Below, piece by piece: positions 4,215-38,215 of a DNA stretch of 64,000 nucleotides; the stretch's first letter is position 1, and each line of letters opens with the position of its first letter. The notes beneath the pieces were generated by a model. It saw only the letters and a list, made by a program, of their open reading frames with translations. It did no database searches and was not told the origin of the DNA. Where the stretch lies: assembly GCA_963777565.1 (NCBI GenBank), contig CAVZQZ010000007.1, positions 55,209-119,208 on the forward strand, read 5' to 3'. This DNA is from an uncultured Thermoleophilia bacterium. GTDB taxonomy: Bacteria > Actinomycetota > Thermoleophilia > Miltoncostaeales > Miltoncostaeaceae. Position numbers and translations under genes: made by a program.

Positions 4215-5975
4215 CTACGCGACGACCGCGATGCGCTGACTGGCCTGAACCGCATCGCCGGCGGCGACCCCGAGCTCCTTCACCGTCCCGCCCTGATGGG
4301 CGGCGACCTCGTTCTCCATCTTCATCGCCTCGACGATGCAGATCACGTCCCCCGCGGCGACCTCCTGGCCGACCTCGACGAGAACCTTGAGCACGGTGCC
4401 CTGCATCGGGCTGATGATCGTGTCGCCGGACGCGCCCGCTCCGTGATGCCCGCCACCCGCATGGGCCTTGCGCTCCCGCTTGCGCTTCGGCGCGCCGCCT
4501 CCGACCGCGCCGTCGAGGAACAGGCGCACCTCGAAGCGCTTGCCGTCGACCTCCGCGGTGACCCGCCGCTCGGTGCGCTCCTCGGGCTCCCCGGCCGCCG
4601 GCGCGCCGGCGCCGCCGGCGGTCGGCAGCGGCGTGGCGGTGTCTGACATCGCCGCAAGCTGCGCGTGGCAGGCACCTCCGGCGATGAACTCATCCTGGCT
4701 CAGGAGCCACTTGTGGAAGGGGATGAGGGTCTTGGGACCCTCGACCACGTACTCGTCGAGCGCGCGGAGCATGCGTTTGCGTGCGGACTCGCGGTCGACG
4801 TCCCAGACGATGAGCTTCGCGACCATCGGGTCGTAGATGGCTGGGATCTCCGACCCTGCCTGCACGCCTGAGTCGACGCGGATCCCGGGACCGGCTGGCT
4901 CGCGGTAGCCGGTGATGCGACCGGGGGTCGGAAGGAACCGATGGGAGGCGTCCTCGGCGTTGATGCGGCACTCGAACGCGTGGCCGCGGGGCTTGACGTC
5001 GCGCTGGCGGATCGACAGCGGCTCCCCTGCGGCGACGCGCACCATCTCGCGGATGAGGTCGATGCCGCAGACCTCCTCGGTGATCGTGTGCTCCACCTGG
5101 ATCCGCGTGTTCATCTCCAGGAAGAAGAACTCGTCGCCCGACACGAGGTACTCGCACGTGCCCGCGGAGCGATAGCCCACGGCCTGCACGGCGCGCACGG
5201 ACGCCTCGCCCATGCGCTTGCGAAGGTCCGGTGACACGACGGGGCTCGGCGTCTCCTCGACGAGCTTCTGGTGGCGGCGCTGCACCGAGCAGTCGCGCTC
5301 GCCCAGGTAGATCGCGTTGCCGTGCGCGTCGGCGAGGATCTGGATCTCGACGTGGCGGGGATCCGGCAGGTAGCGCTCCAGGTACACCACCGAGTCGGCG
5401 AAGAACTTCTCCGACTCGCGACGCGCGCCCTCGAACGCGTCCTTGAGCCCGCCGGGCTCCAGCGCGACGCGAAAGCCCTTGCCGCCACCACCCGCCGCGG
5501 CCTTGACCGCGACCGGGTATCCGATCTGCTTTGCGATCGCCCGGGCCTTGGCCAGGGTCGGAACCTCCTCGCGCACCCCCGGAACGATCGGCACGCCCGC
5601 CTCGTGCATCAGCGCCCGCGCGCCGATCTTGGACCCCATCGCGTCGATCGCCTCGGGTGGGGGACCGATGAACACGATGCCGGCCTCGGCGCAGGCGCGG
5701 GCGAACGTCGCGTTCTCCGCGAGGAAGCCGTAGCCGGGGTGGATCGCCTCGGCGCCCGCCCGCAATGCCGTCTCGAGGATCGCCTCGATCTTGAGATACG
5801 ACTCGGTGGCCGGACCGGGACCGATCAGGAACGCCTCGTCGGCGTGGCTCACGAACAGCGCGTCGCGGTCGACCTCGCTGTAGACCGCCACCGACGCGAT
5901 CCCCATCTCGCGCAGCGTCCGGAACACCCGGATCGCGATCTCCCCACGGTTCGCCACCAGGACCTTACGAAACAT
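4215..5975 (-). CDS. pccA: Biotin-dependent acyl-CoA (propionyl-CoA) carboxylase alpha subunit (biotin carboxylase + BCCP)
   Basis: Starts [26 protein letters not shown], has an ATP-grasp body, and carries the C-terminal biotinylation motif CIVEAMKMENEV. The start was chosen at the conserved N-terminus inside ORF 4215..6149. The symbol is assigned from operon context (mutase + carboxyltransferase). Confidence 0.88.
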   Translation of the reverse strand: MFRKVLVANRGEIAIRVFRTLREMGIASVAVYSEVDRDALFVSHADEAFLIGPGPATESYLKIEAILETALRAGAEAIHPGYGFLAENATFARACAEAGIVFIGPPPEAIDAMGSKIGARALMHEAGVPIVPGVREEVPTLAKARAIAKQIGYPVAVKAAAGGGGKGFRVALEPGGLKDAFEGARRESEKFFADSVVYLERYLPDPRHVEIQILADAHGNAIYLGERDCSVQRRHQKLVEETPSPVVSPDLRKRMGEASVRAVQAVGYRSAGTCEYLVSGDEFFFLEMNTRIQVEHTITEEVCGIDLIREMVRVAAGEPLSIRQRDVKPRGHAFECRINAEDASHRFLPTPGRITGYREPAGPGIRVDSGVQAGSEIPAIYDPMVAKLIVWDVDRESARKRMLRALDEYVVEGPKTLIPFHKWLLSQDEFIAGGACHAQLAAMSDTATPLPTAGGAGAPAAGEPEERTERRVTAEVDGKRFEVRLFLDGAVGGGAPKRKRERKAHAGGGHHGAGASGDTIISPMQGTVLKVLVEVGQEVAAGDVICIVEAMKMENEVAAHQGGTVKELGVAAGDAVQASQRIAVVA

Positions 5976-15655: not shown

Positions 15656-16009
15656 GTGACCATGAACGGGGTGGTGGGCGCCGGCGATCGGATCGCCGAA
15701 GAGGTCACATCGTGGCCCGGTGTGACCGCGGGACCGGGTTCGCGCGGGGAGTTCGCCTTCAGGGTCGGTCGGCGCGAGATCGGCCATCTGCATGGCGACC
15801 GCACGGCCCATTTCGGGTTCCCGAAGGACGTGTGGGCCCGCCTCTATGTACAGGGCCGAATCGACTACCACCCGGTATTCCCGGGGCAACCGGGCTTCGC
15901 GGCCCGCCCCATCGCCGACGACACCGACGTGCGCGACGTGATCGAGCTGCTGCGCCTGAACTACGACCGCGTCGTCGCCCGTCACGGCCTCCCGGCAGCC
16001 GCCGCCTGA
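15656..16009 (+). CDS. Small conserved protein of unknown function (resembles the family annotated as 'luciferase family protein'/DUF5519; recall-based)
   Basis: 117-aa ORF with good codon bias (WPGVTAGPGSRGEFAFRVGRREIGHLHGDRTAHFGFPKDVWARL). Confidence 0.55.
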   Translation: MTMNGVVGAGDRIAEEVTSWPGVTAGPGSRGEFAFRVGRREIGHLHGDRTAHFGFPKDVWARLYVQGRIDYHPVFPGQPGFAARPIADDTDVRDVIELLRLNYDRVVARHGLPAAAA

Positions 16010-16011
16010 GC

Positions 16012-16128
16012 GGTGGTCCCGGGCATTAACAACTCCCTTTCGGCCCCTTCTGGGTGCCGGGCATTAACAATGTAACCCCCGGCACCAGGCCTCCCCGGAA
16101 TCACGATTGTTAATGCCCGGGACCACCG
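16012..16128. repeat. REP/BIME-like cluster of a 19-nt core GGTSCCGGGCATTAACAAT: two direct copies 38 bp apart plus one inverted copy
   Basis: The copies lie at 16015-16032, 16053-16071 and, inverted, 16106-16124. The outer 21-nt arms GGTGGTCCCGGGCATTAACAA (16012-16032) and TTGTTAATGCCCGGGACCACC (16108-16128) are perfect inverted repeats. The same core flanks the transposase at 37.1-38.2 kb. Confidence 0.65.
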
Positions 16129-16211
16129 ATCAGGTGCAACGGGCAGTCACGTGGGGCGAGGCGGCGCCGTCCACGCGTCCTCGTCGGCCGGGACGTCGTA
16201 GCATTCGTGCC

Positions 16212-16466
16212 GTGCCCAGCGAGATCTCGGTCACGGTACGCCTGTTCGCGTCGCTTCGCGAAGCGGCCGGCACCGGGCGGCTGCAGGTCGCGGTGCCGCA
16301 CGCCACGCCCGTCGGCGCCCTCTGGTCCCACCTGCCGCCTGAGGTCGCCGCCGGCGACCCGCCCGCCGCGCTCCGCTACGCCCTCAACCACGAATGGACC
16401 CTGCCCGGCGCTGCACTGCGCGACGGCGACGAGGTCGCCCTCGTCCTGCCAGTGAGCGGCGGATGA
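16212..16466 (+). CDS. moaD: Molybdopterin synthase sulfur-carrier subunit MoaD
   Basis: 84 aa ending ...DGDEVALVLPVSGG. The C-terminal GG and ThiS/MoaD fold pattern fit, and moaE follows with an ATGA overlap. The GTG start was chosen downstream of the REP cluster. Confidence 0.7.
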   Translation: MPSEISVTVRLFASLREAAGTGRLQVAVPHATPVGALWSHLPPEVAAGDPPAALRYALNHEWTLPGAALRDGDEVALVLPVSGG

Positions 16467-16897
16467 CCGGCCTCTCCCCGGACCCCCTCGACATCGCCCA
16501 AGTCGCCGCGGCCGTCGGCGACCCCGAGCACGGCGGCGTCGCCAGCTTCCTCGGCTGCATCAGGCGCGAAGCCGGCATCCGCGAGGTTGTCGCGATCGAG
16601 TACGACGCTTACGAGGAGCTCACCCTCCGAGAGCTCGCCGCCGTCGCCGACGAGGCCCGCGCGCGATTCGGCGCGACCGTCGCGGCCGTCCACCGCACCG
16701 GGCGCGTCGCGGTCGGCGAGCCCAGCGTCGCCGTCGCCTGCTCCGCCCCGCACCGACCCGCGGCGTTCGCCGCGTGCCGGTACGTGATCGACGAGCTCAA
16801 GGTCCGGGCCCCGATCTGGAAGCGCATGATCTACGCCGACGGCGCCGCCGAATGGGTCGACGGCCGGGACCCGGTGCGCGGTGAGCGACCCGCGTAG
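16463..16897 (+). CDS. moaE: Molybdopterin synthase catalytic subunit MoaE
   Basis: Reads MTGLSPDPLDIAQVAAAV...GGVASFLGCIR...PIWKRMIY, typical of MoaE. Confidence 0.85.
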   Translation: MTGLSPDPLDIAQVAAAVGDPEHGGVASFLGCIRREAGIREVVAIEYDAYEELTLRELAAVADEARARFGATVAAVHRTGRVAVGEPSVAVACSAPHRPAAFAACRYVIDELKVRAPIWKRMIYADGAAEWVDGRDPVRGERPA

Positions 16898-18191
16898 GGC
16901 GCTCCCCTCCGTCGACGCCGCCCTCACCGATCCGGGCGTCGCCGAGCTGCTCGAGCACCACGCTCGCGGCCACGTCGTCGATGCGGTCCGGGCCGCGCTC
17001 GCCGACCGCCGCGAGCGGCGCACGGGGGCGGCGGGGCTCGCCGCCGACGTCCGTGCTGCCCTGCGCCCCTCGATGCGCCGCGCGATCAACGCGACGGGTG
17101 TGGTGCTGCACACGAACCTCGGCCGTGCTCCCCTCGCCGACGACGCCATCGCCGCCGCCACCGCGGCCGCCGGGTACGGGACGCTCGAATGGAACGCCGA
17201 CACCGGTGAGCGGGGTTCCCGCCATGACCACGTCGTGGCCCATCTGCAGGCGCTCACCGGCGCCGAGGCGGCCTGTGTCGCGAACACGAACGCAGCGGGC
17301 GTGCTGCTGGCGCTCGTCGCGCTCGCATCGGGCAAGGAGGTCATCGTCTCGCGCGGCCAGCTCGTTGAGATCGGCGGCGGCTTCCGGGTTCCCGAGGTGC
17401 TGCGGGCAAGCGGCTGCCGGCTCGTGGAGGTCGGCACCACGAACAAGACCCGCGTCGCCGACTACGAGCAGGCGATCGGCAGCGAGACGGCGGCGATCCT
17501 GCGCGTGCACCCGTCGAACTTCCGGGTGGTCGGGTTCACCGAGGAGGCGGGCCTCACCGAGCTCGTGGAGCTCGGCCGCCTCCGCGGGCTCGCCGTGATC
17601 GACGACCTCGGCAGCGGTGCCCTCGTCGACGACCCGGCGTACCGTGACGAGCCCGACGTCCGCAGCAGCGTCGGCGCCGGGGTCGACGTTGCCTGCTTCA
17701 GTGGCGACAAGCTGCTCGGCGGTCCCCAAGCCGGGATCCTCGTCGGCACGCACGACGCGATCCGGCGCTGCAAGGCGCACCCACTCATGCGCGCGCTGCG
17801 CCCCGACAAGCTCACGGTCGCCGCCCTCGAGGCCACGCTCGCCCTGCACCGCGACCCGGCGACAGCCCGGGAGCGAGTCCCGACACTCCGGATGCTGTCG
17901 ACGCCGCCCGACGAGCTTCGCCGCCGCGCCGAGGCACTCGCCGCCGAGGTCGGCGGCGAGGTGGTGCAGACCGTCGGCAGGGTCGGCGGCGGATCGCTGC
18001 CGCTCGCCGAGATCGCGAGCTACGCCGTCGCACTGCCCGCACCGGACGGCGAGGACGCGATGGCGTCGGCGCTCCGAGCACTCGACCCGCCGGTCGTCGC
18101 GCGGGTCGCCGATGGGCAGGTCCTGCTCGACGTGTTGACCGTGAGCCCCGGCGAGCTCGCCGAACTCGGCCTGATGCTCGGTCGCCGGTGA
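16881..18191 (+). CDS. selA: L-seryl-tRNA(Sec) selenium transferase SelA
   Basis: 436 aa. N-terminus RALPSVDAAL...; a PLP-enzyme body (FSGDKLLGGPQAGILVG carries the Lys). Directly linked to selB. Confidence 0.85.
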   Translation: MSDPRRALPSVDAALTDPGVAELLEHHARGHVVDAVRAALADRRERRTGAAGLAADVRAALRPSMRRAINATGVVLHTNLGRAPLADDAIAAATAAAGYGTLEWNADTGERGSRHDHVVAHLQALTGAEAACVANTNAAGVLLALVALASGKEVIVSRGQLVEIGGGFRVPEVLRASGCRLVEVGTTNKTRVADYEQAIGSETAAILRVHPSNFRVVGFTEEAGLTELVELGRLRGLAVIDDLGSGALVDDPAYRDEPDVRSSVGAGVDVACFSGDKLLGGPQAGILVGTHDAIRRCKAHPLMRALRPDKLTVAALEATLALHRDPATARERVPTLRMLSTPPDELRRRAEALAAEVGGEVVQTVGRVGGGSLPLAEIASYAVALPAPDGEDAMASALRALDPPVVARVADGQVLLDVLTVSPGELAELGLMLGRR

Positions 18192-36791: not shown

Positions 36792-37112
36792 GTGCCTGTT
36801 TACGAGTACCGCTGTGACAAGGGCCACACGTTCGAGGCGATTCAGCGGATGAGCGATGAGCCACTGTCGACGTGCGAGATCTGCGGGAAGCCTGCGCAGC
36901 GGGTGCTGTACGCCCCGGCGATTCACTTCAAGGGCACGGGGTTCCACAACACCGACTACGGCACCCGAAAGCGTCCCCGCGACGGGGACAAGGGGGACGG
37001 AGCCGCGAAGGACGGGGGCTCGTCGTCGGGCGGCGCCGCCGGAGCGGACGGGACGAAGAAGGTCAAGGAAGCGACCCCCGCGGACACCGCGAAGCGCACC
37101 ACCGGCCCCTAG
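36792..37112 (+). CDS. FmdB-family zinc-ribbon putative regulatory protein
   Basis: Starts MPVYEYRCDKGHTFE...STCEICG, followed by a low-complexity tail. The stop codon abuts the first REP unit. Confidence 0.8.
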   Translation: MPVYEYRCDKGHTFEAIQRMSDEPLSTCEICGKPAQRVLYAPAIHFKGTGFHNTDYGTRKRPRDGDKGDGAAKDGGSSSGGAAGADGTKKVKEATPADTAKRTTGP

Positions 37113-37245
37113 GTCCCGGGCGTTCCACAGGCCGCCCATCCCACTCCGATGGTCCCGGGCATTAACAGTCGGGAACTCCTTGCTCGGTGGTCCCGGGCGT
37201 TAACAATCGCTACTCGCTGGTTGGGTGGTGCCGGGGCTTCACAAT
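37112..37245 (+). repeat. Left REP array: four direct units of the GGTSCCGGGCRTTAACAAT core with 38-39 bp phasing
   Basis: The units start at 37112 (degenerate, GGTCCCGGGCGTTCCACAG), 37151 (GGTCCCGGGCATTAACAGT), 37189 (GGTCCCGGGCGTTAACAAT) and 37227 (GGTGCCGGGGCTTCACAAT). Confidence 0.65.
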
Positions 37246-37971
37246 CGAATGTCCACCCTGCAACCAATCGTCGTTCACGGAATGCTGCGCCTCCAGAGCG
37301 GCGGCGATCGCCGCTCCCGAGTATCCGAAACCGGCTGCGACCTCGACAGCTCGACGGGGGCCGAGCGTCTGGACGAGCGACCGGACGCTGGGTGCCGACG
37401 GTGAGAGCTTTGTGGACGCACAATGCGAAACGTCCTCTTCCACGAACTTGACCAATAGCTCCCGAGCTCGCGAGGGGTCGGGATGGAAGAGATCGAGGAT
37501 CGCTCGTGGGGTGAGGCCAGTAATCCGCGCCGCTCCCGTTGTGAGGGGCCCATAGCTGCCCCATTCCCAAGCCCCGGGCGCCGCAGTCACTCCTGCTCGG
37601 GTCGGGTTCCGCGCGACGTACCGGATCGTCGTCAACAGCTGGGCGTCGTCTTCGATCACCACCATGCGGTAGCGCTCCGAGAAGAGATGTCCCGTTCGTC
37701 CGTGGCGGCGATTGAAGTACCGCGCGTAGCGGGCCAGCAGGTCCCGCATCCCGTCGCCGACATCGGGCCTGGGCGTCGTCGCGACAAGATGAATGTGGTT
37801 GTCCATGAAGCAGTATCCGAAGCAGATCCACGATCGTCGAGCGATCACGGCATCGAGCAGGCGACGGAGATAGGCGCGGTCATCGTCATCCTCGAAGATC
37901 CGGCGTCGATTGTTCCCGCGAGCCATGAGGTGGTACGTCGCGTCTTCGCCGACGAAACGAATACGACCCAT
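37210..37971 (-). CDS. IS200-like Y1 (HUH) transposase of REP-associated (RAYT) type, with a C-terminal HTH-like region
   Basis: Reads MGRIRFVGEDATYHLMARGNNRRRIF...CFMDNHIHLVA (HUH)...TIRYVARNPTRAG (catalytic Tyr). The last ~15 codons run into the REP units. Start chosen inside ORF 37210..38334. Confidence 0.75.
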   Translation of the reverse strand: MGRIRFVGEDATYHLMARGNNRRRIFEDDDDRAYLRRLLDAVIARRSWICFGYCFMDNHIHLVATTPRPDVGDGMRDLLARYARYFNRRHGRTGHLFSERYRMVVIEDDAQLLTTIRYVARNPTRAGVTAAPGAWEWGSYGPLTTGAARITGLTPRAILDLFHPDPSRARELLVKFVEEDVSHCASTKLSPSAPSVRSLVQTLGPRRAVEVAAGFGYSGAAIAAALEAQHSVNDDWLQGGHSIVKPRHHPTSE

Positions 37972-38120
37972 CCGATGCTCCCCTCGCCGGTGTTTCTTCC
38001 AAGCGCTTAAGGCTCCAGCGACGAGAAATGGCCCCCCTTCGAACGAATCAGTATCCGTGACGGTTGACCCGACCGACTCTCGGCAAGTCGTTTGGCACGA
38101 AACGATCCGGGCCCGCGGCG

Positions 38121-38179
38121 CGATTGTTAAGCCCCGGCACCGCCGATCGGCGAAAACCTGATTGTTAACGCCCGGGACC
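38121..38179 (-). repeat. Right REP array: two inverted units, 38 bp apart
   Basis: ATTGTTAAGCCCCGGCACC (38123-38141) pairs with the unit at 37227 (18/19 over the 19-nt core, 20/21 with flanks). ATTGTTAACGCCCGGGACC (38161-38179) pairs with the unit at 37189 (perfect over the 19-nt core, 20/20 with one flanking base). Confidence 0.65.
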
Positions 38180-38215
38180 ATCGATCGGGCGGCCGGCGAA
38201 TTCAGCCCCGGGGGG

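Follow-up and report, generated by a model that had tools for sequence, protein, structure and literature searches.

The closest described relatives of the locus analyzed here are the TIRtrons, with their TIR-associated tyrosine transposases, or TIRYTs (Di Nocera 2013, PMC3733652). Most, but not all, TIRtrons carry the motif GGGG[AT][CG]A[CG] in their TIRs (PMC3733652). Quentin 2018 equates TIRYTs with TnpA_REP subclass 2.1, the second-largest subclass of TnpA_Y1, whose defining architecture is a C-terminal HTH-type extension (Bac_DnaA_C, HTH_23 or HTH_28), and gives Y-x3-NP at the catalytic tyrosine as the signature of TnpA_REP class 2 (PMC6006769). That survey detected no REP-like repeats adjacent to genes of subclass 2.1 and recorded only IS200-type Y1 genes in the Actinobacteridae (PMC6006769). 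The locus described here, which lies in a 64-kb stretch of Thermoleophilia DNA that we refer to as the window, falls within this known TIRYT/TIRtron group, which is related to the REP transposases, and does not represent a new system. To our knowledge, TIRYT or subclass 2.1 enzymes are widespread and have never been studied biochemically, and we know of no substrate for them.

The transposase gene (37210..37971, minus strand) is predicted to encode an intact Y1 HUH enzyme of 253 aa. The protein matches Pfam Y1_Tnp (PF01797; E = 1.4e-12, 48 bits against a cut-off of 23), and has the HUH histidines H59 and H61 together with a single catalytic tyrosine in Y118-VAR-N122-P123, which makes it a member of the Y1_Tnp superfamily, as originally predicted, and gives it the Y-x3-NP of TnpA_REP class 2. 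H59, H61, Y118, N122 and P123 are invariant or nearly so among 36 aligned homologs, in which W137 and S139 of a serine motif (WSS) past the tyrosine are also conserved. Among NCBIfam models the best match was REP_Tyr_transpos at 66.2 bits, which is below its equivalog cut-off of 80, and the IS200 model scored 14.7 bits against a cut-off of 55. A PDB search with the single sequence found nothing, and a profile of the family matched 4ER8 (TnpA_REP) at E = 1.3e-4 and ISDra2 at about 0.85. In a Foldseek search, an AlphaFold model (pLDDT 87) likewise matched 4ER8 best (TMt 0.74), and also matched 2XMA and 2VJV. By sequence and predicted structure, then, the enzyme is closer to TnpA_REP than to IS200. 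The original prediction went further and grouped it with the RAYTs; that grouping was not upheld, as the protein scored 68-94 bits against 14 long TIRYTs of Di Nocera and 4-31 bits against five canonical RAYTs, and its length of 253 aa with a C-terminal extension compares with ~150-165 aa for RAYTs. Sequence comparison thus places the protein with the long, HTH-bearing TIRYT or subclass 2.1 enzymes, not with the canonical REP-associated RAYTs, and TIRtron, rather than REPtron, is the fitting published name for the element (PMC3733652).

The catalytic core of the enzyme spans approximately residues 1-140, and the remainder (~140-253), which is helical in the AlphaFold model, aligns with the HTH of relatives. 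HTH_23, HTH_28 and Bac_DnaA_C domains were found in 13, 8 and 4 of the 36 aligned homologs, respectively, and a Pfam search of the 253-aa protein itself gave no HTH match in this region. The putative recognition helix is divergent in the clade and acidic in the protein itself (HSVNDDWL), and an ortholog with 60% identity ends ahead of this helix.

The repeat associated with the gene was first described as a 19-nt core; the core is real, but the conserved unit is 25 nt long (CGRTGGTSCCGGGSRTTAACAATCG). A search of the window with the core pattern, allowing up to three mismatches, returned eight matches (expected 0.02; 0/100 shuffles), and the window holds eight unit copies and two partial copies in total, confined to exactly two loci: the transposase locus and, as had been claimed, a second one that is intergenic and gene-less. 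On the 3' side of the transposase gene are three full plus-strand units, U2 (37147..37171, CGATGGTCCCGGGCATTAACAGTCG), U3 (37185..37209, CGGTGGTCCCGGGCGTTAACAATCG) and U4 (37223..37247, GGGTGGTGCCGGGGCTTCACAATCG), all found by the pattern search and nhmmer and U3 also by the repeat finder. On the 5' side are two minus-strand units, the inner U6 (38121..38145, CGGCGGTGCCGGGGCTTAACAATCG) and the outer U5 (38159..38183, CGATGGTCCCGGGCGTTAACAATCA), each found by all three methods. The units on both sides point inward. The cores at 37151, 37189 and 37227 (plus strand) and at 38123 and 38161 (minus strand) were therefore borne out, as were the nested inverted doublets that bracket the gene. The outer cores (37189 vs 38161-38179) are identical at 19/19 positions, and their 25-nt arms are 96% complementary according to the repeat finder; the inner cores match at 18/19 positions. 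A further arm pair from the repeat finder (24 nt, 92%) also brackets the gene. Unit spacings are 39, 38 and 38 nt on the 3' side and 38 nt on the 5' side, in agreement with the 38-39 nt first reported. Further details needed correction. Of the four 3'-side units, the one at 37112 proved to be a degenerate partial copy (U1, 37108..37131, plus strand) with 13 nt complementary to 38167-38179 and an nhmmer E of 0.38, and it overlaps the end of the upstream Zn-ribbon gene at its TAG stop codon. U3 adjoins the stop codon of the transposase gene, and the unit at 37227 (U4) falls within the ORF itself, in its last 12 codons, where it encodes the conserved C-terminal SIVKPRH.

Comparison with orthologous loci revealed a footprint-like pattern of conservation. 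The U3 core was invariant in 4/4 orthologous 3' flanks, U5 was invariant and U6 almost invariant in 3/3 orthologous 5' flanks, and the extra unit U2 was found in two relatives (L030 and L052) and missing from a third (L034). Because the cores are invariant in the orthologous flanks while the spacers diverge, the repeats appear to be linked to the gene. Spacing is conserved as well. Across loci with the 19-nt core (the window, L006, L030, L034, L052, L087 and L090), adjacent same-strand intervals were 38 or 39 nt with a single exception (approximately 17 listed, plus two more). Spacer sequences are unrelated between loci despite this, and the 38-nt phasing is therefore more than a local curiosity. 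A further conserved block (GGGGGCCATTTCTCGTCGCTGGAGCCTTAA in the sense of the gene) occupies the 5' leader of the transposase gene (38006..38040, minus strand); three orthologous flanks preserve it almost unchanged, its surroundings diverge, and it holds no sigma-70-like match. Neither sigma-70 promoters nor intrinsic terminators were found at either repeat locus.

The units had been taken for REPs, but single arms folded no better than shuffled sequences (z = -1.4 and +0.8) and are consequently not repetitive extragenic palindromes; hairpins arise only from inverted pairs of units. Every Y1 substrate solved so far of which we are aware forms a hairpin, unlike the single units here. The tag of the units is inconsistent (GTGG, ATGG or GCGG, several units being preceded by GTGG), and within the core there are two short dyads, CCCGGG and GTTAAC. 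We considered a hairpin inside one unit (CGAT...ATCG, 4 bp), which is too weak, is not predicted and lacks covariation among units. A CRISPR-like arrangement of 25-nt repeats and 13-nt spacers was also rejected, as the units are inverted and too few, the spacers are not long enough, and cas genes did not turn up in the stretches under study. A DnaA box in TTAACAAT was discarded as well, since by eye only 5/8 positions match TTATCCAC.

The second locus in the window (16011..16128, no strand assigned) lies between a DUF5519/luciferase-like gene and moaD and begins 2 nt past a stop codon. Its units at 16015, 16053 and 16106, together with a degenerate inner reverse unit at 16073-16087, form a complete 2+2 nested palindrome (outer and inner forward, then inner and outer reverse). 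As single-stranded DNA the element has a predicted folding energy of -43.2 kcal/mol (z = -7.6). The 2+2 architecture is kept in the orthologous spacers of relatives, where 6 of 31 pairs show double-sided changes. The window gave no match to any Rfam family, so we discarded the idea of a Moco riboswitch ahead of moaD. Close relatives all carry the element at the DUF5519-moaD spacer, and neither an empty site nor a presence/absence polymorphism was found; in more distant relatives the DUF5519-moaD synteny is lost, and no core was found in 38 kb from such relatives. These comparisons show an old element, fixed at this site in the relatives. Another gene-less copy occurs in a Thermoleophilia MAG (L006), with a GntR-aminotransferase gene on one side and a BrkB gene on the other, and a further stretch (L037) carries a single inverted unit pair. 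The gene-less palindromic elements are ~110-135 nt long, fold with z = -7.6 and -12.6, and in every case begin only a few nucleotides away from a stop codon. A core scan of GTDB species representatives gave 29 single matches in unrelated taxa and one real cluster, that of L006, and among 52 metagenome stretches with the core, only L037 and L052 were true family members.

Orthologs of the transposase with 82%, 67% and 60% identity all lie between LytR and Zn-ribbon genes, and the relatives are labelled Gaiellales, Gaiellaceae or Thermoleophilia, which agrees with the actinobacterial lineage first proposed. The host is a high-GC soil actinobacterium, probably one of the Gaiellales. The gene has a dN/dS of 0.21-0.25, out to the 60%-identity orthologs, which points to purifying selection; its GC3 is 0.74, compared with 0.88-0.92 in neighboring genes. 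The window holds one copy of the transposase and no tnpB. On the best reading of these sequence data, the gene is host-retained, vertically inherited and domesticated. The association with repeats reaches beyond the orthologs. In the 60% clade both flanks share the same 1-nt-longer core, and a related core is again found next to homologs of 44-47% identity, whose genomic positions are quite different. Distant homologs are flanked by inverted repeats with a related G-rich core and the same inward orientation. A 42% homolog (L093) has a perfect 28-nt TIR containing GGGGTCAG and carries the published GGGGWSAS motif; the inverted repeat of another (L095) carries GGTCCCAGGGTCAG, and a third (L094) has iterated GGTGCCAGGGTCTTAAC units, two upstream and three to four downstream.

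Taken together, the locus is probably a domesticated TIRtron-type element, with gene-less doublets as the targets on which its enzyme would act in trans. The terminal inverted repeats would be arms of two or more inward-pointing 25-nt units 38 nt apart, and two-unit arms placed head-to-head without a gene would make the palindromic elements just past stop codons. The transposase gene itself would no longer move. By analogy with TnpA_REP and the IS200/IS605 enzymes, the transposase may bind the units, most likely on single-stranded DNA, in which the inverted arms of a gene-less element could snap into a long hairpin. Cleavage and rejoining through the HUH/Tyr center might then create, maintain or occasionally move the gene-less doublets, even today, and the C-terminal domain may have a role in this. 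Two recognition sites per arm at a fixed spacing suggest that more than one protomer would be bound per arm. Several observations count against this explanation: there are only two core loci in 64 kb; exact-core clusters occur in only one GTDB-representative locus and few metagenome contigs, and in none of the 38 kb from more distant relatives; neither an empty site nor a presence/absence polymorphism was found for the gene-less element, which is fixed in relatives and so gives no sign of present mobility; the window protein has no Pfam HTH, an acidic helix and a truncated 60% ortholog; and single units form no hairpin and the protein scores below the NCBIfam RAYT cut-off.

The locus shares several features with TIRtrons. 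The enzyme is a long RAYT-like Y1 protein with the RGN-x-R, YCLM-x-NH-x-HL, Y-x3-NP and W-x-WSS signatures, its relatives carry the C-terminal HTH, and its gene lies between terminal inverted repeats, which are neither REP hairpins nor palindromic in themselves and also occur elsewhere as dimers. The overlap of the 3' repeat with the gene end corresponds to the "3'ov" case (PMC3733652). In contrast to published TIRtrons, the arms are iterated (two to four units, strictly phased at 38 nt), the host belongs to the Thermoleophilia, in this clade the HTH recognition helix is divergent, and the core (GGTSCCGGGSRTTAAC) has no strict GGGG[AT][CG]A[CG] match in either flank or at the second locus; a related motif is present instead. 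The clear flanking repeat family also sets the locus apart from subclass 2.1 as described by Quentin 2018. REPtrons and REPIN-RAYT systems (E. coli TnpA_REP, 4ER8; Pseudomonas, Bertels and Rainey) resemble it in having a single-copy, vertically inherited Y1 gene (here, one copy in the window) flanked by a repeat presumed to be its substrate, and REPINs are likewise gene-less inverted doublets that form long hairpins and sit just past genes. Unlike the imperfect palindromes of those systems, single units here are no hairpins and carry no consistent GT[AG]G tag, and the protein is of another subclass and scores under the RAYT model cut-off. A canonical REP family has tens to hundreds of intergenic copies per genome; the 64 kb analyzed here contain two loci.

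An alternative is that the locus is the dead relic of an ancient transposon between the LytR and Zn-ribbon genes, its gene and repeats persisting without any transposition-related function and the gene-less palindromes being kept as 3'-end hairpins of the host, such as terminators or mRNA stabilizers. Fixation of the gene-less element at an orthologous site, the position of all gene-less copies near stop codons, the divergent or truncated C-terminal HTH region of the clade, the low GC3 and the restriction to two loci in 64 kb would all fit. We nevertheless consider a relic unlikely, since its catalytic residues are invariant and its dN/dS remains low out to 60% identity. Moreover, U-tract terminators are absent, the units are footprint-conserved on both flanks, and a role in termination would leave the 5' side unexplained.

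It is distinctly improbable that the locus is a canonical REPtron, as first proposed. In such elements, known from E. coli and Pseudomonas, a RAYT is flanked by palindromic REP hairpins, which it cleaves at a tag resembling GTAG. The best NCBIfam model and the best solved structure are both of REP type, the flanking repeats are inverted and elsewhere intergenic, and GTGG precedes several units, but the units lack a consistent GT[AG]G tag and single arms remain unfolded. The bit scores to RAYTs and TIRYTs assign the protein to another subclass, it scores under the 80-bit cut-off and is longer than RAYTs, and the repeats make up two loci in 64 kb. It is very improbable that this is an ordinary insertion sequence of the IS200/IS605 family (compare IS608 and ISDra2), autonomous and with ends of its own. 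Such an element would share the HUH/Tyr fold, the Y1_Tnp domain and inverted repeats around a single ORF; the IS200 score is negligible, however, the insertion site is the same in 82-60% orthologs, the element appears not to move as a unit, the window has a single copy and no tnpB, and the ends are repeats common to gene-less elements instead of distinct left and right subterminal hairpins. That the repeats are operators for an unrelated host DNA-binding protein, as the two core dyads and a fixed spacing like that of paired operators might suggest, and are near the transposase gene by coincidence is scarcely credible, given that the association is kept through the 82-60% orthologs and that a related core recurs beside 44-47% homologs at other genomic sites.

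A bolder extension of the TIRtron reading, which we offer tentatively and regard as doubtful, is that subclass 2.1/TIRYT enzymes run a REPIN-like, vertically inherited population of repeats. The Thermoleophilia clade would then display its grammar, with two 25-nt non-palindromic sites per arm at a fixed 38-nt phase; instead of a small REP hairpin, the enzyme would read the duplex that forms when the element folds back. If this is true, the mode of recognition would be unlike that in every solved Y1 transposase-DNA complex.

The candidate substrate is compact and well delimited (units of 25 nt, phasing of 38 nt, a gene-less element of ~118 nt), and the enzyme that accompanies it in this deep actinobacterial lineage is intact and conserved. 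The orthologous loci reveal which bases are constrained, so binding and cleavage experiments should be easy to design. The locus extends a known kind of element, the TIRtron, to a new lineage, the Thermoleophilia, and extends domesticated Y1 transposase systems beyond the Proteobacteria.

The 253-aa open reading frame at 37210-37971 (- strand) matches the Pfam Y1_Tnp model (1.4e-12), as expected of the Y1 transposase in the original prediction, and the HUH and Y-x3-NP motifs on which that assignment rested hold in an alignment of 36 homologs, in which H59 and H61 are invariant and Y118, N122, P123, W137 and S139 are nearly so. The best NCBIfam match is REP_Tyr_transpos at 66 bits, which falls short of the 80-bit cut-off for that family, and IS200 reaches only 14.7 bits. 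A PDB search with the single sequence gave no matches; the family profile matched the E. coli TnpA_REP structure (4ER8) with E=1.3e-4 and ISDra2 TnpA at ~0.85. For the AlphaFold model of the transposase (mean pLDDT 87), 4ER8 is also the best Foldseek match (target TM 0.74 over 155 columns), with the ISDra2 and IS608 transposases ranking behind.

Reading the sequence confirmed the region as first described. A pattern search with GGTSCCGGGCRTTAACAAT, allowing up to 3 mismatches, found 8 matches in the 64-kb window where 0.02 were expected, and 0 of 100 shuffles reached 8. Three units lie on the 3' side of the transposase gene (37151, 37189 and 37227, + strand), two on its 5' side (38123 and 38161, - strand), and three form a second, gene-less locus (16015+, 16053+ and 16106-). 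Four direct units had been proposed on the 3' side; three stand, and the copy at 37112 has degenerated and shares its first bases with the TAG stop codon (37110) of the upstream Zn-ribbon gene. A profile of the eight units adds two partial copies (37111-37124, and 16073-16087 on the - strand), with no further matches within the window. The repeat finder likewise brackets the open reading frame with inverted arms of 25 nt (96% complementarity) and 24 nt (92%). The predicted 19-nt core is real, but alignment of the units with their flanks extends the conserved unit to 25 nt, CGRTGGTSCCGGGSRTTAACAATCG, followed by ~13 variable bases. Among the loci with the 19-nt core, same-strand spacing is 38 or 39 nt in all but one of ~17 adjacent intervals plus two more, and is kept across loci despite spacers that are unrelated in sequence. 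The inner 3' unit (U4, 37223-37247) overlaps the final 12 codons of the transposase gene, so that this repeat unit also encodes SIVKPRH, a conserved peptide at the C-terminus. All repeat clusters start 0-5 nt from the preceding gene's stop codon (37110-37112 and 16007-16009 in the window; 6270-6272 in L006, a Thermoleophilia MAG).

Folded as single-stranded DNA, the arms flanking the gene are no stabler than shuffles (z = -1.4 and +0.8), whereas the gene-less elements form long hairpins (-43.2 kcal/mol, z = -7.6 for window 16008-16132; -64.4 kcal/mol, z = -12.6 for L006). The behaviour of the units is thus that of terminal inverted repeat (TIR) halves, not of individual palindromes, and the proposal of palindromic REPs fails. 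The gene-less element in the window (16011-16128) is a complete nested palindrome of 2+2 units that begins 2 nt past the stop codon of a DUF5519/luciferase-like gene, with moaD downstream. The same architecture occupies the orthologous spacer of relatives (flanking protein ~90% identical), and its arms co-vary, with double-sided changes in 6 of 31 predicted pairs, including an inner-stem G-C to C-G. The L006 element is also 2+2 and sits in another context, between GntR-aminotransferase and BrkB genes; a metagenome contig, L037, has one inverted pair only. No empty site of the gene-less element was found among the relatives compared. Downstream of it (16212-18191), moaD/ThiS-like, moaE and selA (selenocysteine synthase) genes run in one direction, an order also kept in L088 and L091.

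Among the 36 aligned homologs, the C-terminal region matches HTH_23 in 13, HTH_28 in 8 and Bac_DnaA_C in 4, the architecture that defines subclass 2.1 of Quentin et al. 2018 (PMC6006769), which those authors equate with the TIRYTs of Di Nocera et al. 2013 (PMC3733652), RAYT-like genes with terminal inverted repeats replacing REP hairpins, the whole being a TIRtron. Against 22 reference sequences reconstructed from Additional file 5 of the latter study, the window protein scored 68-94 bits with 14 long TIRYTs (e.g., S. maltophilia 1152 and 4509 and P. fluorescens 148A) and 4-31 bits with five canonical RAYTs, E. coli b228 among them. A DNA-binding role for its own C-terminus is putative and uncertain, since a Pfam search of the window protein gave no HTH match, the part that aligns with the recognition helix has the sequence HSVNDDWL in its clade, and the 60% ortholog stops short of that part (truncated called gene in L031, 209 aa, without the HTH-aligned region).

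The window repeats lack the strict form of the motif published for TIRYTs, GGGG[AT][CG]A[CG]. More distant homologs at other genomic sites follow a like repeat logic. In L093 (42% identity), a perfect 28-nt TIR that contains GGGGTCAG overlaps the 3' end of the gene; in L095 (44%), the TIR is 36 nt long and terminates in GGTCCCAGGGTCAG. In L094 (47%), units with core GGTGCCAGGGTCTTAAC are iterated, two preceding the gene and three to four following it, spaced mostly at 45 nt with one interval of 26 nt. The window core thus belongs to the TIRYT repeat lineage as a diverged form, and iterated units are common to a sub-clade. In the L094 units (4746-4823 and 5677-5828), a 7-bp stem (CCGCCCG...CGGGCGG) closes a loop that carries the conserved core, so that these units are REP-like in forming hairpins; the window unit keeps only a vestigial CGAT...ATCG.

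Orthologs at 82% (L030), 67% (L034) and 60% (L031-33) identity share one gene order: ROK, LytR, transposase, Zn-ribbon, polysaccharide deacetylase and LPG synthase. The transposase dN/dS against them is 0.21-0.25, somewhat above the 0.08-0.18 of neighbouring genes. Across orthologous flanks, spacers and surrounding DNA diverge, but the outer unit remains unchanged both 5' and 3' of the gene. The inner unit hardly varies on the 5' side; its 3' counterpart has degenerated in L030 and L052. Loci of the 60% clade have one and the same variant core on either side of the gene, longer by one base (GTCCCGGGCGCTTAACAAT), together with an expanded 3' array; in L031 (10778-10960) this array comprises 4-5 tandem copies that recur every ~37-43 nt, each joining GGAGGCCACGGAGGCCATCTC to variant core GTCCCGGGCGCTTAAC. 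The transposase gene is poorer in GC than the window (63.8% against 70.9%), and its GC3 is 0.74 where that of neighbouring genes is 0.88-0.92; its dS to orthologs is ~2x that of the neighbours despite long vertical inheritance. Its 5' leader (38006-38040, - strand) holds a ~30-nt block, GGGGGCCATTTCTCGTCGCTGGAGCCTTAA in gene sense, that is almost invariant among the 82% and 67% loci amid diverging leader sequence; the block has no match to a sigma-70 consensus, and promoter, operator and leader structure are all candidate roles for it. Neither locus has a sigma-70-like promoter or a U-tract terminator, and no Rfam family was found in the window.

An alternative explanation, that the element is a relic, carries real weight. 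Across GTDB species representatives, clusters of the exact core are confined to a single locus, L006; a metagenome scan contributed only L037 and L052, and the unit is absent from 38 kb of more distant relatives. The relatives carry Gaiellales, Gaiellaceae or Thermoleophilia labels, the last naming a class of Actinomycetota, in agreement with an apparently actinobacterial host. Quentin et al. 2018 (PMC6006769) report only subclass 1.1 in Actinobacteridae, and we found no literature report linking RAYT or TnpA_REP with Thermoleophilia.

The reading of a domesticated TnpA_REP-like enzyme with putative cognate flanking repeats was right in spirit. As a REPtron with a RAYT it was wrong in kind, because the element is best read as a TIRtron with a TIRYT and its units are not palindromes. 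While that kind of element was already known, its occurrence with phased, iterated TIR units is new, as is the host lineage.
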